Source of the DNA: an uncultured Lentisphaeria bacterium
GTDB lineage: Bacteria > Verrucomicrobiota > Lentisphaeria > Victivallales > Victivallaceae
Assembly (NCBI GenBank): GCA_903831825.1
Contig: CAIKZE010000219.1
Coordinates: forward strand, 2,025 to 66,024
Direction: 5' to 3'
Length of the DNA stretch: 64,000 bases
Positions 2,642 through 63,912 of this stretch are shown in pieces. The translations under genes were made by a program, and so were the position numbers. The notes under the pieces were generated by a model. That model saw nothing but the letters and a program-made list of their open reading frames with translations. It did not search any database and was not told the origin of the DNA. Every line of letters starts with the position of its first letter. The first letter of the stretch is position 1.

Positions 2642-3445
2642 ATGAGCAATAAAGAAAATATTACGTTATGGCATAACCGCAAGAGTGCCGGAACAGGTAA
2701 AGAACAGGATGATTTTCTGCCATATATGGAAGTGCATTTGTTGAAAACCGAACGTCCGCTTGGCGCAGTTCTGATTTGTCCCGGTGGCGGCTATGGCGGG
2801 CGGGCGTCACATGAAGGAGTGACTATCGCCGAAAAATTCAACGCGCTGGGGCTCCACGCATTTGTCGTACATTACCGGGTGGCGCCATATCGTTTCCCGG
2901 CTCCGCAGGAAGACGCTTTGAGGGCGATAAAAATCATCCGCTCACGTGCCGCGGAATGGAAAGTTAAGCCGGATAAAATCGCGATCTGCGGATTCTCCGC
3001 CGGCGGGCATCTTGCCGCTTCCAGCGGAATCTTTTTTGATGAGGTAAAAGCCGATGACGGAGACAAGGCCGACAGTTGTTCCAGCCGTCCGGATGCGCTG
3101 ATCTTGTGCTACCCGGTAATCAGCAGCGGCCCGAAAGGCCATCAGGGTTCATTCATAAACCTGCTCGGCCCGGAAGACGCTCCCGGACATAAGGAAAAAT
3201 ATTCACTGGAGAAACTAGTCAGCAAAAATACGCCTCCCTCCTTTCTCTGGCATACCGCCGATGACGGCGGAGTGCCGGTGGAAAACAGCCTGATGCTCGG
3301 CATGGCGCTTCGGGAACATGAAATCCCTTTCGAACTGCATGTCTTTCCGCAGGGCCGTCACGGGCTCGGGCTGGCTCCCGAATATCCAAATATCGCAGTC
3401 TGGCCGGAGCTCTGTCTTACCTGGCTGAAGAACATGGGCTGGTAG
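2642..3445 (+). CDS. Alpha/beta hydrolase, acetyl-esterase / BD-FAE-like
   Basis: 267-aa ORF with a PGGGYGG motif and the nucleophile elbow GFSAGGH. The C-terminal part carries D and H (ADDGGVP, GRHG). Confidence 0.7.
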   Translation: MSNKENITLWHNRKSAGTGKEQDDFLPYMEVHLLKTERPLGAVLICPGGGYGGRASHEGVTIAEKFNALGLHAFVVHYRVAPYRFPAPQEDALRAIKIIRSRAAEWKVKPDKIAICGFSAGGHLAASSGIFFDEVKADDGDKADSCSSRPDALILCYPVISSGPKGHQGSFINLLGPEDAPGHKEKYSLEKLVSKNTPPSFLWHTADDGGVPVENSLMLGMALREHEIPFELHVFPQGRHGLGLAPEYPNIAVWPELCLTWLKNMGW

Positions 3446-6771: not shown

Positions 6772-7824
6772 TTATTCTTCCGATTTATAGTTAACCGGTT
6801 TGCCGTCGGCAACCACCGATTTATCCCAGGCGGACTTGACCAGATTGAAAACGTTTTCCGGAATCGGAACGTATTTCAGATTGGTCGCGCTCTGAGCTCC
6901 TTCAGTGAAACACCATTTGAAATATTTGAGCATGGCTTCGGCCTTGGCTTTGTTCTCCTGATTTTTATAAATCAGAATAAAGGTGGCGCCGGTGATCGGC
7001 CATGAATCTTTTCCCGGCTGGTCGTTCAGTTCCATATAGAACGCCGGCGCATTCTGCCAGTCGGCATTGGCTCCGGCCGCCTGGAAAGTGCTGATTTCAG
7101 GTTTAACGAAATTGCCGTCACGGTTTTTCAGCATAACGGTCGGCAGTTTTGATTCAAGCGCATAAGTATATTCGACGTAGCCGATGGAACCCTTGACTTT
7201 CTGCACGTTATTGCAGACTCCCGGGTTCTTCTGACCGCCGATGCCGACCGGCCATTTGACGGATTTGTCGCAGCCGACATCTTTTTTCCAATCAGCTGAA
7301 ACTTTCGTGAGATAATCGGTGAATATCCAGGTGGTGCCGGAACTGTCGGAACGATGAACAACGGTTACCGGAAGGTCCGGCAGCTTCAGTTCCGGATTGA
7401 GTTTGGCGATAGCCTGATCGTTCCAGTTCTTGATATTGCCGAGGAATATATTGCCTACGGTTTCGCCGTCAAGCTTAAGCTGGTTGATTTCCACGCCCGG
7501 CACATTGACGACGATGACAACCCCGCCCATCAGCATCGGAAACTGCATCAACCCGTCTTTTTCCAGTTCTTCCAGTTTCAGCGGATTGTCGGTGGCTCCG
7601 AAATCCACCGTTTTGGATTTAATCTGATTGATGCCCGCGCCCGAACCGACTGACTGATAGTTTATTCTGGTCCCGGTTGCTTTCTGGAAGTTGTAAGTCC
7701 AGACCCGGTAAACCGGTTCCGGGAAAGACGCGCCGGCGCCGTTAATGGTTTCCGCGCAAAATCCCGACACCGCAGTTAAACCTGCGACAATTGAAAGCCC
7801 TGCTGTTTTTTTGAACCAATTCAT
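6772..7824 (-). CDS. pstS: Phosphate ABC transporter substrate-binding protein PstS
   Basis: 350-aa ORF with a signal peptide followed by the PstS-type GAGASFP motif. First gene of the operon. Confidence 0.9.
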   Translation of the reverse strand: MNWFKKTAGLSIVAGLTAVSGFCAETINGAGASFPEPVYRVWTYNFQKATGTRINYQSVGSGAGINQIKSKTVDFGATDNPLKLEELEKDGLMQFPMLMGGVVIVVNVPGVEINQLKLDGETVGNIFLGNIKNWNDQAIAKLNPELKLPDLPVTVVHRSDSSGTTWIFTDYLTKVSADWKKDVGCDKSVKWPVGIGGQKNPGVCNNVQKVKGSIGYVEYTYALESKLPTVMLKNRDGNFVKPEISTFQAAGANADWQNAPAFYMELNDQPGKDSWPITGATFILIYKNQENKAKAEAMLKYFKWCFTEGAQSATNLKYVPIPENVFNLVKSAWDKSVVADGKPVNYKSEE

Positions 7825-7964: not shown

Positions 7965-9350
7965 TTAACGACTTAACCGGCGGCACCGGAGCTTTATAAC
8001 TACAGAGGCACAAAGACACAGGGAAAGCATTTTCTCCATTTTGGGCAGCCGACTCCGAGATTTTAGAGAGCCGTTGAGCAGAAGCATTGCCGGCATGGGA
8101 AGTATGGGAAGCATGGGAAGTTCCGACATTTCCGAGTGCTTAGAGAGCTCTTGAGCAGAGGCCGTGTCAGCATAGCCAGCCGGGCAACCGTCCGACTCCG
8201 AGCTTTTGGAGAGTGTTTTAGCAGAGACCTCATCGGATTTTCCGTCGACACTCCCATACTTCCCATACTTCCCATACTTCCCATTATTCCCATCGTCTTT
8301 CAAGATTCCCGAGCCATTAGAGAGCTCTTGAGCAGAGGCTGTTTTGCCCATGCGGCCAGCATAGCCAGCCGGGCAACCGCCCATTTCCGAGTAATTAGAG
8401 AGTGCTTGAGCAGATGTTTAAGCAAATTTCCCATTATTCCCATTATTCCCATCATTCCCATCGGCATTTACCATACCATAGCATAGCACATTCCCGAGAT
8501 GTTGGAGACCGCTTTTAGCTTGCTGTTATTTTGTTTTCCACTTTTCTCGCTTTTCTCGCTTTTTCATTTCCGAGTGTTGGAGAGCCGTTGAGCAGAACCG
8601 TTTTTACTCACTTTTCCGACGGCTGGTTAAGTTTTTCGTTAATAAATTTCAATTTTGTCATTTTGGACATCCTGGACAGTGCTTGAGCAGAAAAAAGTTG
8701 AATAATGTCCAACATCTCCGAGACTTTGGAGACCCGTTCAGCACAACGGTTTTAATTTTTAATAAGATTTTCAAACAACATTTACGACATCTGGTTAAGA
8801 TTTTCGTTAACTGATCCGCAGTCGCGGGAGACCACCGTCCGAGACGGACGACACTATAACAAAACCCATTTTGGACACCGCTTCCCCATATTTTGGACAC
8901 ATGTTCCGGTGTAGTGCCCTCTCTCTGAGAGGGTGGTTCCGGATCCACCGTCCGAGACGGACGGCACTACAACAAAACCCATTTTGGACACCGCTTCCCC
9001 ATATTTTGGACACATGTTGTGCAGTCTCGCCCGGGACTCCGAGCTTTAGAGACATCTCCAGTATGGCGTTTTTGCCAAAAACGCCTCTCTTTGCCGGTTT
9101 TGGCAAAACTGGCATACAATTTTTCTTTCCAACATTTCCGAGGTTTTAGAGTCCTATTGAACACAATCCTTTTCTTCCACGAATTGCTCGAATGGACACG
9201 AAGAAAACCAAATTCGCGATAATCCGTGTAATTAGTGGATATAAAATCCCATTTTAAAAATTATAAGTTTTGTCTTCGTTTTCAGGATTTATTCTGAATT
9301 CTGACTCCTGAATTCTGACTCCTGAATTCTGACTCCTGAATTCTGACTTC
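7965..9350. repeat. Mosaic intergenic repeat array A
   Basis: About 11 degenerate copies of a 30-nt motif (ttccgag-N-ttagagag-N-ttgagcaga) separated by micro-repeat fillers. Fillers include 9-mers of TCCCATACT type in both orientations, a 22-mer x2, a 73-nt unit x2 at 8833-8905 and 8946-9018, and a 14-mer x4. No credible gene. Confidence 0.85.
9296..9350. repeat. 14-bp tandem repeat gaattctgactcct, about 3.9 copies
   Basis: Direct reading gives units at 9296, 9310, 9324 and 9338. Sits immediately before the 147-bp repeat copy A. Confidence 0.9.
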
Positions 9351-9362
9351 TATCCCTTTACC

Positions 9363-9509
9363 TATAGTAAATTTGTCAACGCAGGCAGTGAAATAGAGCT
9401 AAAATAACGCAAAAAATGCGATTTTGAAAGTTGCAGTTCAATGGCATGAAAAATGGTATTCCGGCTTTCTTGCGGGTGGCTTGCCGACGGAGAATGCATC
9501 CTTAATTTT
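9363..9509 (+). repeat. 147-bp direct repeat, copy A
   Basis: Aligns with 10441-10588 with 5 substitutions and one 1-nt indel (hand alignment). Begins tatagtaaatttgtcaacgcaggcagtg. Confidence 0.9.
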
Positions 9510-10367
9510 TCAGAAGATAAAAAAACGGCAAAGAAAAGTCACACAGTGTGTGGCGAATTGCCGTTGTCTGTCTCCGGGAAAGTAAATCGTCACATGCTGT
9601 GTGACGAATCCACGCCGTCGTTTCATCAGGATTTAGGCTGGTCTCATTACCGCACTCTGATGCGGGTCGAAAAGCCGGAAGCCAGGACTTTCTACGAACA
9701 GGAGACCGCACAGGCACATTGGAGCGTTCGCGAATTGGAACGGCAGATAGGCTCACTCTACTATGAGAGATTGCTCATGAGCAAAGAGAAGAAGGAAATG
9801 CTTTGCGAGAATCGCCATACCGTCGGACTTCATCCGCTGGATGTCATCAAGGACCCGTATGTGCTGGAATTCCTGAATCTCCCGGAAGACCATCGCTTGA
9901 ATGAAACGGATCTGGAAGACCGGCTTATTGAAAACCTGCAATCCTTCCTCCTGGAACTGGGCCACGGGTTCGCATTCATCGGACGCCAACAGCGTCTTAC
10001 GCTGGACGGAGACCATTTCTATGCTGATCTTGTATTCTATCATGTCCGGCTGAAATGCTATATCGTCATTGATCTTAAAACGCAGAAGCTGGCTCATGCC
10101 GACCTTGGCCAGATGCAGCTCTATGTCGGTTTCTACGACGAGAATGTTAAGGGAAAGGATGATAACCCCACGCTGGGGCTGATACTCTGCACTGACAAGA
10201 ACGATGCGGTAATCCGGTATGTGCTGGGGAAAGGGCAGGACAAGATATTCGCCAGCCGCTACCGGCTTGAACTGCCGTCAGAGGCAGAACTGGCCGCTGA
10301 AATGCGCCGCGAAATGAAGTTGCTTGGCATGGATGATGCAAAACAAGCGGGGGCTAAAAAGAAATGA
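9453..10367 (+). CDS. DUF1016/YhcG-like PD-(D/E)XK nuclease, 5'-truncated
   Basis: Homology to YhcG-type proteins starts only at LGWSHYRTLM. The C-terminal nuclease core is intact (GFAFIGRQQRL, YADLVFYH, IVIDLK, QMQLY). The first ~50 codons of the ORF are read from repeat DNA. An internal Met at 9594 would give 257 aa, against about 340 aa for typical full-length members as I recall them. Confidence 0.6.
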   Translation: MVFRLSCGWLADGECILNFSEDKKTAKKSHTVCGELPLSVSGKVNRHMLCDESTPSFHQDLGWSHYRTLMRVEKPEARTFYEQETAQAHWSVRELERQIGSLYYERLLMSKEKKEMLCENRHTVGLHPLDVIKDPYVLEFLNLPEDHRLNETDLEDRLIENLQSFLLELGHGFAFIGRQQRLTLDGDHFYADLVFYHVRLKCYIVIDLKTQKLAHADLGQMQLYVGFYDENVKGKDDNPTLGLILCTDKNDAVIRYVLGKGQDKIFASRYRLELPSEAELAAEMRREMKLLGMDDAKQAGAKKK

Positions 10368-10440
10368 AACTTCATTTTGAATCCAGCCTTGATTACCAGT
10401 CACTATTCACCAGTCACTATTTACCAATTGTCTCTACACA

Positions 10441-10588
10441 TATAGTAAATTTGTCAACGCAGGCAGTGAAATAGAGCTAAAATAACGCGAAAAATGCGGT
10501 TTTAAAAGTTGCAGTTCAATGGCATGAAAAATGGTATTCCCGGCTTTCTTGCGGATGGCTTGCCGGCGGAGAATGCATCCTTAATTTT
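10441..10588 (+). repeat. 147-bp direct repeat, copy B
   Basis: See copy A. Preceded by the 14-mer cagtcactattcac x2 and the junction aattgtctctacaca. Confidence 0.9.
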
Positions 10589-10812
10589 AACGCAAAGGCG
10601 CGAAGAAGAACAATAAAGAGAAAAAACCTTTTCAAAAAGGCATAAAAAAACGCATTTTATAATGAATATATGCACAACAAGTAATTTTTTTGCTGCTTGA
10701 CAGTCATAGACATGTTGACCTCATCGGGCTGTCCACTTTTTCCGGCCAGATATCTCCGGGTTTCTTTTTTTATGAAAAAAGTTTGAGATTTTTTGCTTTT
10801 TGCTTTGATTTA

Positions 10813-10831
10813 TGTAACTCTTGGGGTTACA
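10813..10831 (+). promoter_or_regulatory. Palindrome TGTAAC-N7-GTTACA in the higBA promoter region (candidate HigA operator)
   Basis: Perfect 6-bp inverted arms, 45 nt upstream of the higB ATG. Flanked by TTGATT (10805-10810) and TATAAT (10835-10840). Confidence 0.35.
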
Positions 10832-10875
10832 GTATATAATATAAATGAGATTTAGTTTTCAGTCAAGGGTTGGCA

Positions 10876-11154
10876 ATGATAAAAAGTTTTAAGCATAAGG
10901 GTTTAAAGCGGTATTGGGAACAGAATGACTGGCGCGGAATTCAGCATCAACATGCGCATAAGTTAAGATTAATTCTTGATTTGCTGAACGCAGCGACAAT
11001 TATTGATGATGTTGATTTTTCCGGTTCACGGTTGCATCCGCTGGAACCCAAAAAAGATAATATATGGTCGATAACAGTATCCGGAAATTGGCGGGTAGTG
11101 TTTAAATTTGAGAATAACAATGTTTATATTGTTGATTATAAAGACTATCATTAA
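10876..11154 (+). CDS. higB: HigB-type toxin (RelE/ParE superfamily, plasmid maintenance system killer)
   Basis: 92 aa from the ATG at 10876 (MIKSFKHKGLKRYWE...WRVVFKFENNNVYIVDYKDYH), a typical HigB sequence. The toxin precedes the antitoxin, as in higBA. Confidence 0.85.
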   Translation: MIKSFKHKGLKRYWEQNDWRGIQHQHAHKLRLILDLLNAATIIDDVDFSGSRLHPLEPKKDNIWSITVSGNWRVVFKFENNNVYIVDYKDYH

Positions 11155-11169
11155 GCATAATTTAACGGA

Positions 11170-11517
11170 ATGGAGAAAAACATGAATACGGAAAAAGAGA
11201 AGGTTTTAGACGCAACTATGCGCGCGGTCTGCCCGTCGCACCCCGGCGAAATATTAAAGGGATTGTATTTATCCGGTTCGTCAATCAGCATCAGCGAATT
11301 CGCCGAAACGATCGGTGTATCCCGCAAGGCAATTTCGGCGATAGTAAACTGTCACAAATCAGTAACTCCCGAAATGGCAATGCGTTTATCAAGAGCGACA
11401 AAGACAACTCCGCAGTTGTGGCTGAATCTTCAAGCCAACTATGATCTCTGGCATCTTGCGCATGAAAAGCAGGAAGTTTTTTCACAGATCAAACCGCTGG
11501 TTTTCGCAGTGGCATAA
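11170..11517 (+). CDS. higA: HigA-type antitoxin, XRE-family HTH
   Basis: 115-aa ORF with the HPGEILK motif and an HTH (ISEFAETIGVSRKAISAIVN). Starts 15 nt after higB. Confidence 0.85.
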   Translation: MEKNMNTEKEKVLDATMRAVCPSHPGEILKGLYLSGSSISISEFAETIGVSRKAISAIVNCHKSVTPEMAMRLSRATKTTPQLWLNLQANYDLWHLAHEKQEVFSQIKPLVFAVA

Positions 11518-13235: not shown

Positions 13236-13286
13236 ATTGCACAGGGACTTGTGTTTTAACAGGGATAGACAGGATGTTGAAAGAGA

Positions 13287-13396
13287 GTAGTCAGTAGTCA
13301 ACGGTATTACGACATGACAGTTTAACGGTATTACAGTCAAACCGTAAAACCGTGGAGCCGTTAAACCGGAAAAAGGATTTCTCTGTGTCTCTGTGG
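13287..13396. repeat. Low-complexity word-repeat patch of the same style as the arrays
   Basis: Contains gtagtca x2, acggtattac x2 (13301, 13325), aaccgtaaaaccg/ccgttaaaccg and tctctgtg x2. The reverse complement of the last resembles acagaggcacaaagacacaggg at 8002-8023. Confidence 0.4.
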
Positions 13397-13506
13397 TTAA
13401 TTGATTTAGCGATTTCCTGCCGGAAATGATTCCAGTCGTTTCATTTATGCGGTTGAAATTTCACGTTTCAGGAGGTTTATTATGAGGAAAAAAATTGGAG
13501 ATATAC

Positions 13507-17423: not shown

Positions 17424-17482
17424 ATTAATGTTTCTTTCCCCGGCTTAATGACTGTATTCGTGTTTAGCGACCGGAAAATTTG

Positions 17483-17676
17483 AATATCCAATATCCAACA
17501 CGGAATATCTCGCACAAAGACGCAAAGGCACAAAGAAAAGTAAAACTTGCCATTGTTTTTCTCTCCGTGTCTTCGTGCGAGAAGATGTTCAGCTTTTTGT
17601 ATTCTGCCTTTCCTTCCTCAGTTGGATATTTCCCGCTTCGCGGGATCCCGCCTTGCGGGACGAGATATTGGATATT
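17483..17676. repeat. MITE-like element bounded by a 13-bp perfect inverted repeat
   Basis: AATATCCAATATC (17483-17495) pairs with GATATTGGATATT (17664-17676). The interior carries CACAAAGA-type 8-mers, two small GC hairpins (cccgc-ttc-gcggg, tcccgc-ctt-gcggga) and a segment resembling 9520-9585. Confidence 0.55.
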
Positions 17677-17805
17677 TGTTTTTTTACCCATAAATCCAGT
17701 GAAGACCCATATTCAATAACCTTTACGTAAACAATTTAACCCCTGAGAAGAGAAAATTTAAGCGTCCCGTCGCTTTTTCTTAAAATATAAATCGTGATTT
17801 TGCGG

Positions 17806-31393: not shown

Positions 31394-32122
31394 ATGAAAG
31401 GGAACTCAACAGTTTTTAATCGAAAACTAAACTTTCACGTTTCGTTTTCGGAGAAGAAAAAGGCAAATTTTACGCTCATCGAACTCCTCGTGGTGATCGC
31501 CATCATCGCGATTTTGGCCTCAATGCTGCTGCCGGCGCTGACCAGCGCCAGGGAAACGGCCAGACAGGCACAATGCATGGGCAACCTTCGTCAAATCGGC
31601 CAGGCCGTAGCCTCCTACTCGCTTGACTATCAGGATTTTTTTCCGTATGCCGTTAACGGCGGCGCGCCGCACACCTTATATTACAATCTGCAACCTTATA
31701 CCGGAATAGTTCCCGCTTACCCTGCAACAGCGGCTCAAGGCAAAATTTACTGGTGTCCGAAAGACACCTACAGGGTGATTTGGAAAGATTGTCAATACAG
31801 CTATACGCAGAACGGTTATATGAATTGCCTTGGCGCATGGGCAACCTATATGCACATGACCCGGATGACGCGGATCAAGAACCCGTCCACCATGGTCTTC
31901 ATGACGGACGGAATGCGGACATCTGCCGGAGTGGAAGGTGGACAATTCTGCTTCTACACCTCAACATACCCTTTTACCGCAGGCTCCAGTTCCACAGACC
32001 TGGCGATTGATTTCAGGCATCCGAATTTAAACGTTCCGTGTTTGTTCGCCGAAGGTCATGTGAACACTAAAAATATTAAGGATATGTACGGAAATACAAA
32101 TTGTGTTTACTACGCGCCATAG
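31394..32122 (+). CDS. Pilin-like protein with prepilin-type N-terminal domain and C-terminal (D/E)GHV box
   Basis: [28 protein letters not shown], with FAEGHV near the C-terminus. I prefer the ATG at 31394 because GGAGG directly abuts the ATG at 31385. Confidence 0.85.
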
Positions 32123-52655: not shown

Positions 52656-53423
52656 TTATCTGAATACCGGAATCGCGTCTCTAAGCCAGAAATCGTTGTA
52701 CTTAATATCCTGAACATGGCCGTCAGCCCGGAGCGAATTACATGTTTTTACACCAAATCCGTGTGTCAGAATGCCCAGCGAGCCGGCATTGCCATCGGCG
52801 GGAAGGTCATTGTTGACTAGAGTATCAGGTGTAACTATCCCGTCAGCCCAACTTCCCAAATACCATGTAAAAGCAAACGGATATCTCTCGAATGCCCCGT
52901 CGGCGGAACCTCCGTTGGCGGTTTGCTGTTTGCCGTCGGCAATGGTAAGGACGGCCGCCGGAGATTTTATTTTGCTTACCGGCATGGCCGGAAAGTTACT
53001 GGCATCAGGAACAGTTATGTTGAAATTGCCCATGCCGGTTATGTAAGGATTCACGGAATAGGTCAGTCCCCCGGCAGTGTTTCCGGCTGAAATGGGCTGG
53101 CGAGTGGCCAACGGGCAAATAAACGTGGAAACCGTTTTTCCTCTCAGGTCACGATTTATGTACGGCGCCAGAAAACCGTTCCAACTGTAAGTGGCGGCAA
53201 CGCCGTTAACAACTCCAGGCTGACGCGGCGGTAAATAATTCCTGTAATCATCCGCATACATCTGGAAGAAAAGACCAATTTGTTTCTGATTGCTTCTGCA
53301 ACTGTTGATCTTTGCCGAAATTCTTGCTTTGTTCAAAGACGGAAGCAGCATTGAGGCCAAAATCGCGATGATCGCGATCACCACGAGGAGTTCAATGAGT
53401 GTGAAATTTTTTCGCATATTCAT
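52656..53423 (-). CDS. Pilin-like protein with prepilin-type N-terminal domain and C-terminal (D/E)GHV box
   Basis: [30 protein letters not shown], with RADGHV near the C-terminus. Confidence 0.85.
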   Translation of the reverse strand: MNMRKNFTLIELLVVIAIIAILASMLLPSLNKARISAKINSCRSNQKQIGLFFQMYADDYRNYLPPRQPGVVNGVAATYSWNGFLAPYINRDLRGKTVSTFICPLATRQPISAGNTAGGLTYSVNPYITGMGNFNITVPDASNFPAMPVSKIKSPAAVLTIADGKQQTANGGSADGAFERYPFAFTWYLGSWADGIVTPDTLVNNDLPADGNAGSLGILTHGFGVKTCNSLRADGHVQDIKYNDFWLRDAIPVFR

Positions 53424-53625
53424 TTTTATATTCCTTCTTTTTTAATTACTACAACCGTTTCGCTATTTATAGTTTAATTCACTTTCTGAAAAAAAGCAAC
53501 AATAAATTAAATAATTTCATTAAAAAATATTGCTTTTTAGCAAAATAAGCGTTATTATTATATTCATAAAATGAATAAACTATTTAAATAGAACATCAGA
53601 TTAGGCTAAATGGAGAAAAAAAGTA

Positions 53626-59056: not shown

Positions 59057-60937
59057 TTAAAGGTCCGGAATCTTCAACTGTTTCTCTTTCGGCGTCCACA
59101 TGATTTCCTGCTGGATGCTCATTGACGCCGGAAACTTATGAACATTCTGATAGCGGCTGGATAACGCCAGCAGCGTATAAGGCGAGAACAGGAACGTGTA
59201 CGGCTGTTCTTCATGCAGCAGCCGGTGAAACTGGAAGCACAATTCGACCCGTTTCTTGTGGTCAAAAGTTACTCTCAATTCATCAATAATCCGGTCGGCT
59301 TCGGCGTTCTTGAACCCGTAATTGCTGCTGAACGGTTTGTCGGCTTCGCTGGAATGCCAGAGCTGATAGAGGTCGGGCTCGTAAGCGATTGTCCAGCGAA
59401 GCGTGCAGGCGTCAAAATCCTTTTGCTCCAGTCGCTGTAAATACACGGACCATTCCAGGATCTGAATTTTCATTTGGACTCCGCCTTTGGCCATGTCTTC
59501 CTTGATCAACGGCAGCATTTTCTCCTGAAGAGAGCTGTTCGCCACCTGCAAGATGGTAAACTCAAACTTTTTGCCGTCTTTTTCGAGGACTCCGTCGCCG
59601 TCAATATCTTTCCAGCCGGCTTCCGCCAGCAGGGCTTTGGCTTTTTCAACATTAAATTCATAGGGCTTGATGCTCTTGTCATAATAGGGGCTGTCGTAGT
59701 AAAGCGGTCCGGTCACAATCTCACCCAGCCCGAAATACGCGTCTTTCAAAATTTTTTCCTTGTCCACCAGACATGACAGCGCCTGGCGCACCCGCTTGTC
59801 CTGAAACAGCGGATTATGCAAATTGTAACCGACATAGGCAAATGTCCTGGAAAGATATTTCAGTTTACTCAGCTTGCCGTTTGGACCAAATTCCGGAATA
59901 TCAGTGCGGTTCCTCCACTGTTCCGGCAGCAAGTCCATCCGGTCAATTCCTCCGGAAAGCAGCGATTGAAAACAGGTGTTCGGATGTTTGATAATTTCAA
60001 ATGCTGTATATTTTATTGGCGGCGCAATGCCAAGTTTATCGCCGAAAAAGTTCTCATAGCGGGAGAGAACCACCCGGCGGTCCTTATCCCAGCGCAGCAG
60101 CCGGTACGGGCCGCAACCGACAATCATCCGGTTCCGCTGATGGTCGTCGTTAAACTTTTTCGCGTCAAACGGACCTGCATAGGCATGGTACAAATGTTTG
60201 GGCAGCGGACTTAAGCCGAGAGTCAGTTCCAGCGATTGATAATACGGCATCTTCCAGTAAACCTTGAATTCATAATCAGAGAGAACTTCAATTTTTTCAA
60301 GGTCTTTGTAATAGACCCGCATCGAAGCGCAATTGGTGTCCGGATCATTTATCACATCCGCATAGAATTTAAAATCCCGGGCGGTTACTTCTTTGTTTTT
60401 CCATTCTTTCCCGGTTACCGGGTCGGTGAAGTCCTGCCAGGTGATGCCTTTTCTCAGCTTGATCGAGTAGATTTTTTTATCCGGTGAAATCGTCCAGCTT
60501 TCCGCCATCAGCGGTTCAAATATCTCCGGTTTTTCAAAATTGCGGTCAGCCAGCGACGAATTACAAAACCCGTTTATCAAACTTACAGTGTAGTCGTTAT
60601 TGATTAAAGGATTCATATTGCCGACATCGGCGGAGATGGAAGTAATAATCCGGTCGCCGGGCGTGGCGTTCCGGTCGTAAAACTCCAAATTGGATATTTT
60701 CTCCGGAGATTTTTCTTCTGCCGTCGCGCTTGCCGGTTGAACCGCAGTAGCCGCCGCCGCAGTCATTCCTTTATTCTTCATTTGCTGCAGCGTGTCACTC
60801 ATTTCCGACAACTTTTTCTGCATGTCCATATAATCAAAATGCACCCGGTCAACCGCGTTGATCAGAATCACGCCCAACAGAATCACCGCCATGACCAGGA
60901 TCGTGGCAATTATATTCAAATAAAAGTTTCGATTCAT
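59057..60937 (-). CDS. ABC transporter substrate-binding protein, family 5 (Opp/Dpp-like), N-terminal TM anchor
   Basis: 626-aa ORF with an N-terminal hydrophobic anchor and an SBP_bac_5-like body (WTISPDKKIYSIKLRKGITWQD). Confidence 0.75.
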   Translation of the reverse strand: MNRNFYLNIIATILVMAVILLGVILINAVDRVHFDYMDMQKKLSEMSDTLQQMKNKGMTAAAATAVQPASATAEEKSPEKISNLEFYDRNATPGDRIITSISADVGNMNPLINNDYTVSLINGFCNSSLADRNFEKPEIFEPLMAESWTISPDKKIYSIKLRKGITWQDFTDPVTGKEWKNKEVTARDFKFYADVINDPDTNCASMRVYYKDLEKIEVLSDYEFKVYWKMPYYQSLELTLGLSPLPKHLYHAYAGPFDAKKFNDDHQRNRMIVGCGPYRLLRWDKDRRVVLSRYENFFGDKLGIAPPIKYTAFEIIKHPNTCFQSLLSGGIDRMDLLPEQWRNRTDIPEFGPNGKLSKLKYLSRTFAYVGYNLHNPLFQDKRVRQALSCLVDKEKILKDAYFGLGEIVTGPLYYDSPYYDKSIKPYEFNVEKAKALLAEAGWKDIDGDGVLEKDGKKFEFTILQVANSSLQEKMLPLIKEDMAKGGVQMKIQILEWSVYLQRLEQKDFDACTLRWTIAYEPDLYQLWHSSEADKPFSSNYGFKNAEADRIIDELRVTFDHKKRVELCFQFHRLLHEEQPYTFLFSPYTLLALSSRYQNVHKFPASMSIQQEIMWTPKEKQLKIPDL

Positions 60938-61027: not shown

Positions 61028-62160
61028 TTATGATACTGGCCATCTGAACAACAGAATACCGTTCCCATAATTCCCATTCCTCTCATAATTTTCCTTCTTT
61101 GCTTTCCGGCCCATGCAGCCAGTCACCGCAACATTTTGGACACCGGCACGCTTCCCGCAGTTGCGGGTGACGCCACCGTCCGAGACAGACAGGTCGGACA
61201 CCCGCCTCCCACATTTTGGACACCGCCTCGTAGATTCTGGACACTCGACTCCGAGTCGTTGGAGTGTCCTTGTGCGGAACGGTTCCGGTGTAGTGTTCTC
61301 GCTCTGCGAGAGAGGTTCCGGTCTGCCGTCCGAGACGGACGGCGCTACAACAAAGCCATTTTGGACACCCCGTCCGAGACGGACGGCACTACACCAAAGC
61401 CATTTTGGACACCCCCGTCCGAGACGGACGGCGCTACACCAAAGCCATTTTGGACACCCCCGTCCGAGACGGACGGCGCTACACCAAAGCCATTTTGGAC
61501 ACCCCCGTCCGAGACGGACGGCACTACAACAAAGCCGCGTCTTGGACATCCTCTGAGCATATTTTGGACACATGTGCCCACTCCCATTCTCCCCATTCTT
61601 CCCATCAGTCTTAAAAAACATTTTGGACATTTTGGACACTTGTTGTGCAAGACCGTTTTTCCTTTTTTCACAATTCACCAGTTACCATTCACATTCTTTA
61701 CATTTCCGAGATTTTGGAGACCGCTTTGAGGCTGTTGTTATTTTGTTTTCTCATTTTCAATTCTCAATTTTCCATTTTCAATTGTGTGTCCGGTTAAGAT
61801 TTTCGTTAACTGATACCATTTTTGCCTTCCGTTCCAGTCCGACCATTTTGGACACCACATCCCCTCATTTGGGACAGGTCGGACTAGTCGGACAGCTCGG
61901 ACACCCGCCTCGCAGATTCTGGACATCCCCGCGCCTCATCTTGGACACTGGCTCCACTCAACGGTTTTATGAGACTTATGGGGGCGCCTATGATTTTAGA
62001 CACAACTCCGTATCCTTCCCATTCTTCCCATCGGCATTGGCCGATAGCATCGCGCATTTCCGAGACATAGAGAGCCATTGAACAGAACGGTTTCATTTTT
62101 CAACTATTCACCAGTCACCTAATTGTCTCTACATATATAGTGATTTTGTCAATAAGAACG
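61028..62160. repeat. Mosaic intergenic repeat array B, paralogous to array A
   Basis: Shares modules with array A. The 23-mer ggttaagattttcgttaactgat is identical at 8793 and 61791. About 60 nt starting catt(c/t)ccgagat(g/t)ttggagaccgc are ~85% identical by hand alignment between 8488 and 61699. ttcccatcggcatt, the ccgtccgagacggacgg hairpins, ttttggaca words and TCCCAT micro-repeats also recur. Confidence 0.85.
61325..61548 (+). repeat. Five tandem 44-45-bp units, each a 7-bp-stem hairpin plus a ctacaMcaaagccattttggacacc tail
   Basis: Units start at 61325, 61369, 61414, 61459 and 61504. The last unit has a diverged tail. Confidence 0.9.
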
Positions 62161-62315: not shown

Positions 62316-62903
62316 ATGAAACCTATTGACGAAGAACGGCTTTATCAGGCGTTGAAATTACTGGAGGAACTTCTGGGAATCGCCCATGCCCCGCATTTTG
62401 AATTGGTCATCTGCGGCGGTTCGGCGTTGATTGCTACCGGGCTGGTCCGCAGAACCACCAGGGATGTGGATGTTGTGGCGATGCTCAAGGGAGATATGGA
62501 ATTAGCCGATCCGGAGCCGTTTCCGGCCATACTTGAACAGGCGGCACGGAAGGTTGCGGCCAGCCTTGGCTTGCCGCACGATTGGCTGAATTGCGGCCCA
62601 TGCGACCTTTTTCGCATGGGACTGCCGGAAGGATTTGTCGGGCGTCTGGAAAAACATGGCATTGGGCCATGCCTGACAGTCCATTTTATCGGCAGACTGG
62701 ATCAGATTCATTTCAAACTATACGCTTCAGTTGATCGCGGCGGGTATCATATTGATGATCTGTTGGCCTTGCACCCAGCCGACGAGGAACTGGTTGCCGC
62801 TGCTCAATGGTCAATGAGCCATGATGTCTCGGAAGGATATGTGCTGCTGTTAAAAGAACTGTTACGGAGAATTGGCTATGGCAATGCCGCCGAAAGAATT
62901 TAG
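62316..62903 (+). CDS. Minimal nucleotidyltransferase-fold protein (DUF6036/AbiEii-like)
   Basis: 195-aa ORF. VICGGSALIATGLVRRTTRDVDVVA fits the GS...DxD NTase motif. AT-rich upstream region. Confidence 0.5.
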   Translation: MKPIDEERLYQALKLLEELLGIAHAPHFELVICGGSALIATGLVRRTTRDVDVVAMLKGDMELADPEPFPAILEQAARKVAASLGLPHDWLNCGPCDLFRMGLPEGFVGRLEKHGIGPCLTVHFIGRLDQIHFKLYASVDRGGYHIDDLLALHPADEELVAAAQWSMSHDVSEGYVLLLKELLRRIGYGNAAERI

Positions 62904-63912
62904 AGATCACTTTTTGGAATCGCTGCTGGACCTTTTGTGGCGGCAATGGTCGGCGCTGGGCGTGAGCGGTTACGGCAAAGCGCAAAATTCCGTAGTCATC
63001 GATCCCGAGGCGCTGCTGATTTTCAGTTGTTCAATCTGCCGTTACGATCAGCGGCTGTTTGATGCAATGCTTGACTGGCTGGACAAAAACGAACGCTTTA
63101 TCAACATCCAAAGATTGCGGACCATGATAAGCAAGGAAAAGTTTGCCGCCGCCGACATCCTGGCCGCCGTTGCGGCATGCATGGCGGACAAAAACCCGAC
63201 TCCGAAGTGGCGGCGCCTGGCCGATGCCGTCGAACGGGCTGCGGATAAAAACAGCGGCAGTTTGTTCTTTTTGAAAAATGGCGACCCCATGCCGGTGTTG
63301 GGAAAGGAAGATGCTGTTTTCCGGCAATACGGGTATCTGCGCAGTCCGGTGGAAAACCGCAACCGGGCAATCGCATTTCCACCATACTCGCCCGAAACGC
63401 TGCTGCTGCAAATGCGCGCGTTGTTTGGTATCGGCGCCAAAAGCGAGACTTTGCTATACCTGCTTCTCAATGAAAAAGGCGCTATTCAGGACATTGCATC
63501 AAATACCTATTATTCCTGGCGTTCGATTCAGGATGCGCTGTTTGAGATGGGACATTCCGGCCTGCTTTACTTTCCGGAAAGCAAACGCGGACGGTTTTAC
63601 CGTCTGGACGGCAAACCATGGCTTGATATCCTCCTCCGGGAACATCAGAAAAAAATACGATGGATCTGCTGGCCGCCGTTATTCCGGGCATTTGAACTGA
63701 TATGGGAAAAATTCAATAATCCTGAATTTCTGGAATCGTCTCCATTGGCGCAAACCGCCGAACTGGGAGAACTCATGCGGACCGACATCGCCGACCGGAT
63801 GGAACGTGCCGGCTTGGGAAGTCTGATTACTAATTACGGCGCTGACGCCGAAGAAGCATATCTCGAATCATTCCAGACGAATATTGATAACTCGTTGCGA
63901 GAAGTATCATAA
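62872..63912 (+). CDS. Hypothetical protein, partner of the NTase-fold gene
   Basis: 346-aa ORF that overlaps the upstream gene by 32 nt. An alternative ATG is at 62878. I recognise no motif. Confidence 0.6.
   Translation: MAMAMPPKEFRDHFLESLLDLLWRQWSALGVSGYGKAQNSVVIDPEALLIFSCSICRYDQRLFDAMLDWLDKNERFINIQRLRTMISKEKFAAADILAAVAACMADKNPTPKWRRLADAVERAADKNSGSLFFLKNGDPMPVLGKEDAVFRQYGYLRSPVENRNRAIAFPPYSPETLLLQMRALFGIGAKSETLLYLLLNEKGAIQDIASNTYYSWRSIQDALFEMGHSGLLYFPESKRGRFYRLDGKPWLDILLREHQKKIRWICWPPLFRAFELIWEKFNNPEFLESSPLAQTAELGELMRTDIADRMERAGLGSLITNYGADAEEAYLESFQTNIDNSLREVS

Follow-up and report, generated by a model that had tools for sequence, protein, structure and literature searches.

Several described systems come close to the repeats that are the subject of this work. 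BOX elements of Streptococcus pneumoniae follow the plan boxA-(boxB)n-boxC, with an internal module of about 45 nt in variable tandem copies, and are intergenic, often near accessory genes. In satellites such as the Staphylococcus aureus pathogenicity islands (SaPIs), terS, the gene for the small terminase subunit (TerS), is found near one end of the island, together with accessory genes. Direct repeats with 22-bp phasing are characteristic of iterons. Repetitive extragenic palindromic (REP) sequences carry a GTAG tag (PMC3733652), an inverted pair of REPs makes a REPIN (PMC3116915), and the REPs of bacterial interspersed mosaic elements (BIMEs) point alternately in one direction and the other (PMC2817692). 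In pac regions, the small terminase gene has sets of direct repeats beside it (PMC4737164). Here we analyzed two repeat arrays, A and B, in a stretch of 64,000 nt from contig CAIKZE010000219.1 (assembly GCA_903831825.1) of an uncultured Lentisphaeria bacterium, the whole of which is called the window. With a probability of roughly 0.6, they are two diverged copies of a lineage-wide, polar, non-coding element of Lentisphaerota, which in related loci is linked to a TerS-like gene.

Array A (~8003-9379) and array B (~61050-62152) are two long intergenic regions packed with short repeats. The former occupies a 1.63-kb gap between pstS on the minus strand and a YhcG-like nuclease gene on the plus strand, and the latter a 1.38-kb gap between an SBP_bac_5 gene (minus) and a DUF6036 nucleotidyltransferase gene (plus); both thus lie between divergent genes, as a first-pass annotation of the window had stated. 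Comparison of A with B gave 30 local matches, every one plus/plus and non-colinear, versus a mean of 0.03 matches for B against 30 random window segments. The matches are patches of 85–100% identity covering 35% of B and 24% of A, and about a dozen short modules are common to both arrays, on the plus strand throughout and in different order. Since the patches are co-oriented, non-colinear and extend over only 24–35% of the arrays, they indicate a shared vocabulary and not a segmental duplication. The first-pass annotation had named a simple recent duplication as one outcome that would speak against its model, and this was rejected, because the identity is confined to short patches in shuffled order.

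All matches that the annotation had listed between the arrays exist. The 23-nt small-hairpin module GGTTAAGATTTTCGTTAACTGAT is exact at 8793-8815 and 61792-61814 (one base away from the position first given in B), and a block of ~59 nt at 61700-61758, earlier described as ~60 nt from 61699 onward matching 8488 onward, is 85% identical to 8488-8546 (repeat family D17). The shared sequence TTCCCATCGGCATT occurs at 8455 and 62025, followed downstream by CATTCCCGAG at 8489 in A (one mismatch) and by CATTTCCGAG at 62055 in B; the annotation had noted catttccgag in both arrays, and the pattern is CATT(T/C)CCGAG. Its ccggtgtagtg hairpin module, CCGGTGTAGTG plus hairpin, was located at 8906 in A and 61285 in B. 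The hairpin CCGTCCGAGACGGACGG, hereafter Y, is present in two copies in A and, as claimed, in five tandem copies in B, with one further degenerate copy there (8 matches versus 0.01 expected). The annotation had counted more than ten ttttggaca words, and the exact word TTTTGGACA occurs 15 times, five in A and ten in B, on the plus strand only. At one mismatch or less, ATTTTGGACA gave 30 window hits versus 7.65 expected, with 23 of the 30 inside arrays A and B, and TTCCGAGNNNTTRGAGA gave nine matches versus 0.02 expected. These results confirm that the two arrays are real relatives built from one shared vocabulary.

The distribution of this vocabulary was examined by scanning one genome per species for two words 5–35 nt apart, so that locus counts per genome are lower bounds. 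At least five metagenome-assembled genomes (MAGs) labelled Lentisphaerota were matched, and at least four carry arrays, those among the matches listed being Umea_bin-02975, Victivallaceae SO_2016_GW1_32, ELA063 and LJ_bin-1925. The family was also found in several lake and groundwater metagenomes. The earlier description of a genome-specific element family is therefore not borne out, as the same words and modules recur at many loci. The core 11-nt word, CATTYTGGACA or CATT(T/C)TGGACA, forms co-oriented clusters at dozens of loci. At least 36 loci from four MAGs have clustered words, on a single strand in 34/36 (for example 9/0 or 0/11), the mixed exceptions being L029 (6/2) and L056 (1/6). Start-to-start spacing of the words is dominated by 22 nt (78 pairs), with 11 pairs each at 9 nt and 45 nt. 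The word strand is C- and T-rich (C>G, T>A) in 37/37 sequences (36 loci plus the window), and its GC skew averages -0.13. Window modules that recur in other genomes include an X-Y hairpin unit (described below), TCCCGC-N-GCGGGA hairpins, CACAGAG runs and CTGACTC heptamers; the M2 module CTCCGAG-N-TTGGAGAG-N-GTTGAGCA and the 9-mers CTTTTCTCG, ACTTTAGAA and CCCCATAAG recur in other Lentisphaerota genomes. Within the window, the vocabulary common to other Lentisphaerota genomes concentrates in A and B, on the plus strand. Targeted full-text searches on the word and on Lentisphaerae repeats turned up no prior description of such arrays, and the family is apparently undescribed.

Several matches to the word pair lie outside the family. 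Isolated chance hits occurred in AT-rich genomes, and a single Oligosphaeraceae locus among the matches listed, L022, looks unrelated, its word lying inside inverted repeats around an IS3-type gene. The viral contigs L122, L124, L135 and L138 (37–38% GC, two of them giant-virus MAGs), which were inspected because they have more than three words, hold only unrelated plain 9–10-nt tandem runs, and the remaining viral hits have one to three words and no further array modules. A TerS-like gene and a Lentisphaerota-typical word array are present on contig L094 (CAIVVZ010000567.1), whose assignment to a Desulfobacteraceae bin is probably wrong. A different repeat of ~170 nt was observed in L234, where inverted copies (1-265 and 3020-3260) bracket an SBP5-dapB pair whose SBP5 is 84% identical; the contig ends at the repeat, and a repeat of this type is also found beside the array in L045.

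Clustering of open reading frames (ORFs) around word-selected arrays revealed a recurrent protein of ~240 aa. It matched phrog_309 'terminase small subunit' with E = 2e-29 over residues 1-108, and gave weak matches to Pfam GP3_package and HTH_Tnp_1. The N-domain of its AlphaFold model (pLDDT 70–90) contains a helix-turn-helix (HTH), a long helix and a beta-hairpin, and its best PDB neighbours in Foldseek were the small terminases of SF6 (SPP1-like), Sf6 and phBC6A51 (E = 0.04–0.1). The family forms 161 clusters at 90% identity in the protein database, 65–98% identical to the query, and at least 12 paralogs, 55–98% identical, are present in one MAG. The N- and C-terminal domains are conserved, and the linker between them is hypervariable.

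In related loci, the arrays are physically coupled to this TerS-like gene with fixed polarity. At nine word-selected loci the gene directly adjoins the array on its right side, is encoded on the other strand and has its stop codon beside the repeats. Antisense words stand just downstream of the gene in 7/7 loci picked by exact protein, and at least two words are found there in 40 of 51 metagenome loci, which were those with at least 300 nt downstream and were chosen by protein, not by repeat. All 283 words were antisense and downstream and none was sense; words upstream of the gene were seen in 0/43 metagenome loci. TerS loci without exact words still carry the 9-/7-mer vocabulary. Co-variation between divergent TerS paralogs and divergent words was not seen, the word-less loci mostly having too little downstream sequence. 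Genes beyond the TerS-like gene are highly variable, and include S24 repressor-like genes, Gp49/HTH and MNT/HEPN toxin-antitoxin (TA) pairs, AbiE, and HNH and YhcG nucleases; in L176, L178 and L226 a YhcG-like gene is the divergent neighbour. A PHROG scan of one TerS island revealed no packaging or structural genes, and no large terminase gene (TerL) was seen in the TerS loci inspected.

Two further observations were made at these genes. In the hypervariable linker (alignment columns ~115-185; gene at L027 4015-4887), array modules occur in frame: the peptide APLCGSRDCGI corresponds to the TCCCGC..GCGGGA hairpin, and DKQ/DKL runs correspond to 9-nt repeats, implying that the repeats invade coding sequence without breaking the frame. 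Upstream of one TerS-like gene, L027 5380-5800 holds an AT-rich tract with three ~125-nt units (aggttaaat...cttaaaaacagccttaaaaaa...tatataatttatacttaaatatatta), which constitute a separate repeat family, and then comes an HNH endonuclease gene.

The two sides of the arrays differ in gene content. In word orientation, 19/20 left flanks are ordinary core genes (such as HisG, threonine synthase-type PALP, LeuA-like, 5'-3' exonuclease, regulators and glycosyl hydrolases) and the remaining one is an IS110 transposase. On the right, 15/21 flanks are TerS-like or defence/accessory and 6/21 are housekeeping-looking. The 15 comprise TerS at eight loci plus one remnant, and six accessory flanks: MmeI-type restriction-modification, Fic, NACHT NTPase, AAA_14/DUF4143, and the two of the window, a YhcG nuclease with HigBA and a DUF6036 nucleotidyltransferase. 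The difference between the sides is significant (15/21 versus 1/20 accessory or TerS, Fisher p = 1.4e-5), also with TerS loci excluded (6/12 versus 1/20, p = 0.006). The placement of accessory, defence-like genes on the plus-strand side, noted at first for A and B, therefore extends to the family. The ABC substrate-binding genes on the minus side are indeed present at both arrays, but this is coincidental, since left flanks are any core gene in either orientation. The proposed enrichment beside TA or defence genes stood as an accessory side bias, but the recurrent neighbour is the TerS-like gene and not TA genes. A polar mosaic array as the constant 3' neighbour of a many-copy phage-terminase-like gene, between core and defence/accessory genes, is unusual.

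Two ways in which array orientation might be set from outside were rejected. The flanks show all four strand combinations, contrary to an element oriented by its neighbour genes (promoter, 5' or 3' untranslated region [UTR]). GC skew outside the arrays is positive in 11/30 loci, with no significant link to array orientation, and the window itself contains an island in the opposite orientation, contrary to control by the replication strand. IS110 elements are known to target REP-like sequences; IS110-family genes (DEDD_Tnp_IS110) were found beside the array in L081 (346-1428) and, by eye, just upstream of the TerS-like gene in L211 (1203-2441).

Arrays A and B lie next to a motif, D15, that is also found upstream of TerS-like genes. 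Its core, TATAGTRAWTTTGTCAA, is present at 9348-9379, 10426-10457 and 62121-62152 of the window. The strict motif lies 67–70 nt upstream of the TerS start codon in 10/58 TerS loci, and near variants (for example TTTGTAAAC), counted by eye, raise the number to ~20. The samples that gave contigs 100% identical to the window also gave L161 and L162, where the motif core upstream of TerS is ATAGTAAATTTGTCAAC, identical to window 9363-9379 and 10441-10457. An intermediate was found in L024, where the array is followed by a 5' TerS remnant and then by the D15 motif. Lentisphaerota bacterium ZTH, whose genome is complete, has at the orthologous SBP5-dapB locus (60% protein identity) a plain 222-nt gap with no array and no cargo; the whole unit was therefore acquired in the lineage of the window. 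Because the upstream motif and the accessory cargo are kept without TerS, we read A and B as TerS-less derivatives with the order array, lost TerS, D15 motif, accessory genes. The features of the window are as follows.

6772-7824, minus strand: pstS, core gene left of array A.
8003-9379, plus strand: array A, mosaic and one-directional, with the contents given in the lines that follow.
8003-8030, plus strand: CACAGAG-type start module of array A.
Eight copies, plus strand: M2 modules of array A.
8095-8121, plus strand: 9-mer ATGGGAAGY, array A.
8252-8293, plus strand: 9-mer TCCCATACT, array A.
8428-8461, plus strand: 9-mer TTCCCATTA, array A.
8541-8563, plus strand: 9-mer CTTTTCTCG, array A.
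8622-8647 and 8790-8815, plus strand: GGTTAAG hairpin modules, array A.
8832-9018, plus strand: 113-nt unit in two copies, array A, built as Y hairpin-CACTACA-word-11 nt-word-X hairpin; family D12; it holds the X-Y REPIN-like pair 8903-8970.
9294-9348, plus strand: 14-mer CTGAATTCTGACTC, 3.9 copies, array A.
9348-9379, plus strand: D15 copy CCTATAGTAAATTTGTCAACG, with core ATAGTAAATTTGTCAAC, ahead of the YhcG-like gene.
9453-11517, plus strand: accessory cargo right of A, namely YhcG/DUF1016 PDDEXK nuclease (9453-10367), HigB-like toxin (10870-11154) and HTH_3 antitoxin (11170-11517).
10426-10457, plus strand: third D15 copy, ahead of higB and the HTH antitoxin gene; families D7, D15 and D19.
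13286-13399, minus strand: small vocabulary island with a CACAGAG module and CCGGTTTAACGG... modules, opposite in orientation to A and B.
17480-17680, plus strand: small vocabulary island with CTCGCACAAAGACGCAAAGGCACAAAGAAAA and its inverted partner (CTCGCACAAAG... inverted pair), and TCCCGC..GCGGGA hairpins.
59057-60937, minus strand: SBP_bac_5, core gene left of array B.
61050-62152, plus strand: array B, mosaic and one-directional; 61129-61947 is covered, on the plus strand only, by k-mers that also occur in arrays of other Lentisphaerota MAGs.
61132-61947, plus strand: 16 words CATTYTGGACA or one-mismatch variants, including a 9-nt tandem pair at 61619-61638 and doublets ~22 nt apart.
61282-61352, plus strand: X-Y unit, REPIN-like, GTTCCGG-TGTAGTG-hairpin-GGTTCCGG-...-CCGTCCGAGACGGACGG-CGCTACA, two GTAG-tagged palindromes in inverted arrangement; family D9.
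61326-61536, plus strand: 45-nt tandem repeat, 4.7 copies (Tandem Repeats Finder), Y hairpin, then CRCTACAMCAAAGC, then the word CATTTTGGACAC.
61700-61758, plus strand: M2 module CATTTCCGAG-N-TTTTGGAGAC... with T-rich tail; family D17.
62121-62152, plus strand: D15 motif ...TATATAGTGATTTTGTCAA, promoter-like, ahead of the plus-strand accessory genes.
62316-63912, plus strand: accessory cargo right of B, namely DUF6036 nucleotidyltransferase (62316-62903) and a 346-aa protein with no family assigned.

Some of these features show further relations. Window 9353-9509 and 10431-10588, 94–96% identical, are a duplication of the D15 motif together with ~19 codons from the start of the YhcG-like nuclease gene; the second copy, a fragment of that gene start, stands ahead of the higB/HTH antitoxin genes, as if cassette 'heads' had been copied between accessory genes. 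A 9-nt period is shared by nearly all of the micro-tandem repeats despite their differing sequences (8095-8121, 8252-8293, 8428-8461, 8541-8563, 61619-61638; L155 10980-11243), the word's own 9-mer ATTTTGGAC being repeated ~30 times in L155, and the 45-nt unit equals 5 × 9 nt. No process is known to us by which non-coding DNA would come to prefer a 9-nt period. A separate DNA similarity, between window 31465-31539 and 53322-53437 and shared with other Lentisphaerota loci, reflects the prepilin-type N-terminal methylation domain of DUF1559/SBP_bac_10-like paralogs and is not array material.

Variation within the population was assessed with contigs that encode identical flanking proteins, which came from stratified-lake metagenomes (BUCK21 ENA assemblies and one JGI sample). 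Most of these contigs break off within the arrays, which is to be expected of multi-copy repeats. Independent short-read assemblies from other samples reproduced both arrays apart from tandem copy number, demonstrating that the arrays are not assembly chimeras. The population contigs differ from the window by tandem copy-number changes and two substitutions, and by nothing else. The 9-mer ATGGGAAGY at 8092-8103 is expanded by 36 or 45 nt (four or five copies), the 45-mer is shortened by 45 nt (one unit) at 61389 in L001 and L002, and one contig end possibly holds a further copy of the 113-nt unit (8832-9018). These changes support ongoing or recent replication slippage, as the annotation had suggested. 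Of the module shuffling it had also proposed, the difference in order between A and B is real, but recombination itself is deduced from that order and was not observed, and no A/B recombinants were present in the population contigs.

Part of the arrays resembles REPs, here taken as imperfect palindromes of 20–40 nt with GTAG on one side. Two palindromes are of this kind: X, GG-TGTAG-TG-CCCTCTC..GAGAGGG, at 8906-8934 and 61285-61314, and Y, read on the minus strand as TGTAG-YG-CCGTCCG-NNN-CGGACGG, at 8835-8860, 8948-8973 and in five copies in B. As inverted GTAG-tagged palindromes, X-Y fits the REPIN definition, including the larger hairpin, since the fold of 8903-8990 is a single long, imperfect hairpin (-37 kcal/mol, z = -3.3 on the plus strand; -40.8 kcal/mol, z = -4.8 on the minus strand). 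The copy in B gives two local hairpins, with z = -1.1 and -2.2. Eight X-Y units were found among the sequences examined. A CTACA-type tag followed by the word within 4–12 nt gave 98 matches, and the preceding 20 nt are CCGTCCG-NNN-CGGACGG (Y) in most, not all. The Y hairpin shows no compensatory covariation, its stem sequence being conserved and its loop variable, which is easier to reconcile with recognition by a protein or as single-stranded DNA, or with recent spread, than with a structured RNA. The window genes scanned, at ~1-41 kb and 52-64 kb, include no Y1 transposase, and no REP-associated tyrosine transposase (RAYT) flanked by X/Y was found. A Y1 transposase was seen only in L155 4800-6100, as a frameshifted IS200-family tnpA (IS200 E = 7e-16) that falls below the cut-off for REP_Tyr_transpos. 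Several copies of CTATTAATATGCCGC plus a GC-rich hairpin lie on either side of this gene and in both orientations; the hairpin module differs from X/Y, and is also found inside the L024 arrays (~3020-3060 and 3215-3250).

The arrays contain REP-like passengers and are not BIMEs, since they are mostly non-palindromic and co-oriented: alternation is limited to the 113-nt unit of A (two copies), Y stands five times head-to-tail in B, and most of both arrays is non-REP. Other classes were rejected as well. Against CRISPR, the 45-nt tandem is the sole regular repeat and lacks spacers, gaps of 11 nt separate the 11-nt words, and no cas domains were found. Against integrons, no integrase lies beside either array or upstream of 33 TerS loci, and the repeats are on one side of the cargo and not between genes. 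The hallmark of a pac region, a TerS gene beside the repeats, is lacking in the window and present in the related loci. There are no rep or par genes at the arrays. Rfam 15 gave no hits at gathering score over the whole window and nothing usable for the arrays at E <= 1; a sul1 match at 8150-8202 on the minus strand of array A (23.5 bits versus a gathering score of 36.2, E = 0.12) is regarded as chance. A tRNA-like gene was ruled out with ARAGORN, despite the T-arm-like GGTTCCGATCC, and neither a sigma-70-type promoter nor an intrinsic terminator stands out inside array B.

The element can be described as follows. The array is composed of the word CATTYTGGACA (in 22-nt doublets, 9-nt runs and at the ends of 45-nt units), the X/Y hairpins, other small hairpins, and 9- and 7/14-nt microsatellites. 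Read on the word strand, the full unit runs from a core gene through the array to the opposite-strand TerS-like gene, with its stop beside the array, then to the promoter-like motif and the variable accessory/defence genes. The copies in the window would have lost the TerS-like gene and kept array, motif and cargo (nuclease and HigBA at A, nucleotidyltransferase at B). Arrays may grow and shrink by slipped-strand mispairing, and recombination or gene conversion at identical words of 11–45 nt may reshuffle them, giving the same vocabulary in different order. The hairpin modules could be REP- or palindrome-associated transposable element (PATE)-type sequences carried along by Y1 (IS200-family) transposases. 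Selection probably maintains the conserved word as a site recognised by a protein, because it is identical across genomes in which TerS differs by 30–45% and the surroundings turn over. The best candidate binder would be the TerS-like HTH protein, as the only constantly linked protein, in a manner similar to the direct repeats of pac; this assignment is the weakest step of the proposal. Taken further, the arrays would be pac-like tracts for a multiplied small-terminase homologue, serving as directional packaging entry points (for a helper phage, a satellite or a gene transfer agent-like system), dozens per genome, at core/accessory borders. The word at 22 bp phasing or in 9-bp runs would then be the TerS contact, and the TerS-less arrays of the window orphan or decoy pac tracts. 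We consider this extension unlikely.

Several observations weigh against the proposed element. The tblastn search detected no TerS-like sequence in the window, so that membership of A and B rests on the shared modules and the upstream motif, and ~60% of word-selected arrays with a known right flank have no intact TerS. Discrete element ends were not found, with neither inverted terminal repeats nor target-site duplications among TerS paralogs 84–94% identical, whose homology fades ~90 nt upstream and 90–350 nt downstream of the gene. No integrase or transposase recurs upstream of TerS, where no gene family is present in more than 3/33 loci. The DNA-binding domain of SF6 TerS is reported to show little sequence specificity for pac repeats (PMC4737164), which weakens the analogy to a TerS site. 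The prevalence of the 9-nt period is left unexplained by the model, and part of the copy-number variation could be an artefact, since short-read assemblers may collapse tandem repeats.

The arrays could instead be pure selfish DNA of BIME/REP type, in which RAYT or IS200-family Y1 transposases act in trans to carry REP/REPIN and PATE-like elements into intergenic 'safe havens' where they are tolerated, with proximity to TerS and accessory genes reflecting insertion tolerance. The GTAG-tagged X/Y in REPIN-like inversion, the conserved stems with varying loops, the IS200-family tnpA remnant flanked by a hairpin module that also occurs within arrays, and the IS110-family transposases in L081 and L211 all fit such an origin. 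Non-palindromic words, the M2 module and 9-/7-mers, however, make up most of the array; its modules all point the same way, unlike the alternating REPs of BIMEs (PMC2817692); the window genes scanned include no Y1 transposase; and the fixed polarity of 283/283 words relative to TerS is not predicted by tolerance alone. This account is thus rather unlikely. A role in RNA, in which a long 3' UTR of the TerS-like cassette, an antisense transcript of it or read-through from the genes nearby stabilises mRNA, terminates or insulates transcription, or titrates an RNA-binding protein, would accommodate the strict strand specificity, the strand composition bias in 37/37 sequences and the many stable hairpins, together with the absence of a terminator-like site inside B and, as judged by eye, in the stretch of L027 that separates the TerS stop from the array. 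We judge it quite improbable, given that no Rfam match was obtained even at E = 1 save one chance-level hit, that the best-sampled hairpin is without compensatory covariation, that TerS-less arrays lie in convergent, divergent and tandem gene contexts, that B has no internal promoter or terminator signal, and that array content is hypervariable between loci.

The model of the first-pass annotation, a genome-specific family with modules shuffled by ongoing recombination at hotspots beside TA/defence genes, correctly captures the differing order of shared modules in A and B, the tandem copy-number variation in the population and the accessory genes enriched on one side. As a whole it is very improbable, with the family present in at least four MAGs of different species and several metagenomes (which refutes its genome-specific part), no A/B recombinant in population contigs, and a TerS-like gene instead of TA genes as the recurrent neighbour. 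Binding arrays acting in cis on neighbour genes, or in replication or partition (Pho boxes for pstS, iterons, centromere-like sites), are suggested by the position of array A upstream of pstS, by the reverse complement of the word, TGTCCAAAATG, which we take to resemble PhoB half-sites loosely, and by the iteron-like 22-bp phasing. This is hardly credible for arrays that stand beside dozens of unrelated genes in any orientation, at dozens of loci per genome and with no rep or par genes present.

Lineage-specific interspersed repeats are common; what sets these arrays apart is that they are joined, in fixed polarity, to a multicopy homologue of the small terminase at the border of accessory islands. 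If the word is the site of that homologue, the arrays would mark packaging or mobilisation entry points across the chromosome, which bears on the movement of defence islands in an almost unstudied phylum; the pac-like extension, if true, would represent a new way of organising and mobilising such islands. In practical terms, the copy numbers of the 9-mer and the 45-mer are ready-made strain markers, and the arrays explain the fragmentation of Lentisphaerota MAGs, because contigs end inside them.

Compared with the short tandemly repeated repetitive (STRR) heptamers of heterocystous cyanobacteria, the arrays are alike in forming lineage-specific intergenic runs of 7-nt tandem repeats of several types, and differ in that 9-nt periods dominate and are interleaved with hairpin modules and a conserved word; to our knowledge, STRR sequences have no gene linkage. 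With BOX elements they have in common the modular build, an internal module of ~45 nt in variable tandem copies, and the intergenic location, often by accessory genes, whereas they lack fixed terminal modules and sequence similarity, have a far larger vocabulary and belong to another taxon. Like the REP/REPIN/BIME systems of Proteobacteria (PMC3733652, PMC2817692, PMC3116915), the arrays are extragenic, high-copy and lineage-specific. Their X/Y modules are short imperfect palindromes with 5' GTAG in inverted pairs, and, as in BIMEs, palindromes and other short motifs form mosaic clusters, with tandem unit amplification as in BIME-2, at which assemblies break. Unlike those systems, they are mostly non-palindromic (11-nt word, M2, 9-/7-nt microsatellites), have all modules co-oriented, reach 1–1.6 kb, are coupled to a TerS-like gene with fixed polarity, and were found without a RAYT flanked by X/Y. 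The pac sites of SPP1/SF6-like phages (PMC4737164) likewise have a small-terminase-type HTH protein encoded beside direct repeats, and repeats that recur every two helical turns or so would match a ring of HTH domains. The pac site of SPP1, however, spans the terS promoter and 5' end and has few repeats, whereas the arrays lie 3' of the gene, extend up to 1 kb and hold up to ~30 copies; further differences from pac regions are the lack of a linked TerL, portal, capsid or integrase gene, the at least 12 diverged paralogs in one MAG, and the TerS-less copies in the window. Each of the systems compared, REP/REPIN/BIME, BOX, STRR and pac, thus shares some features with the Lentisphaerota arrays and departs from them in at least one defining feature.

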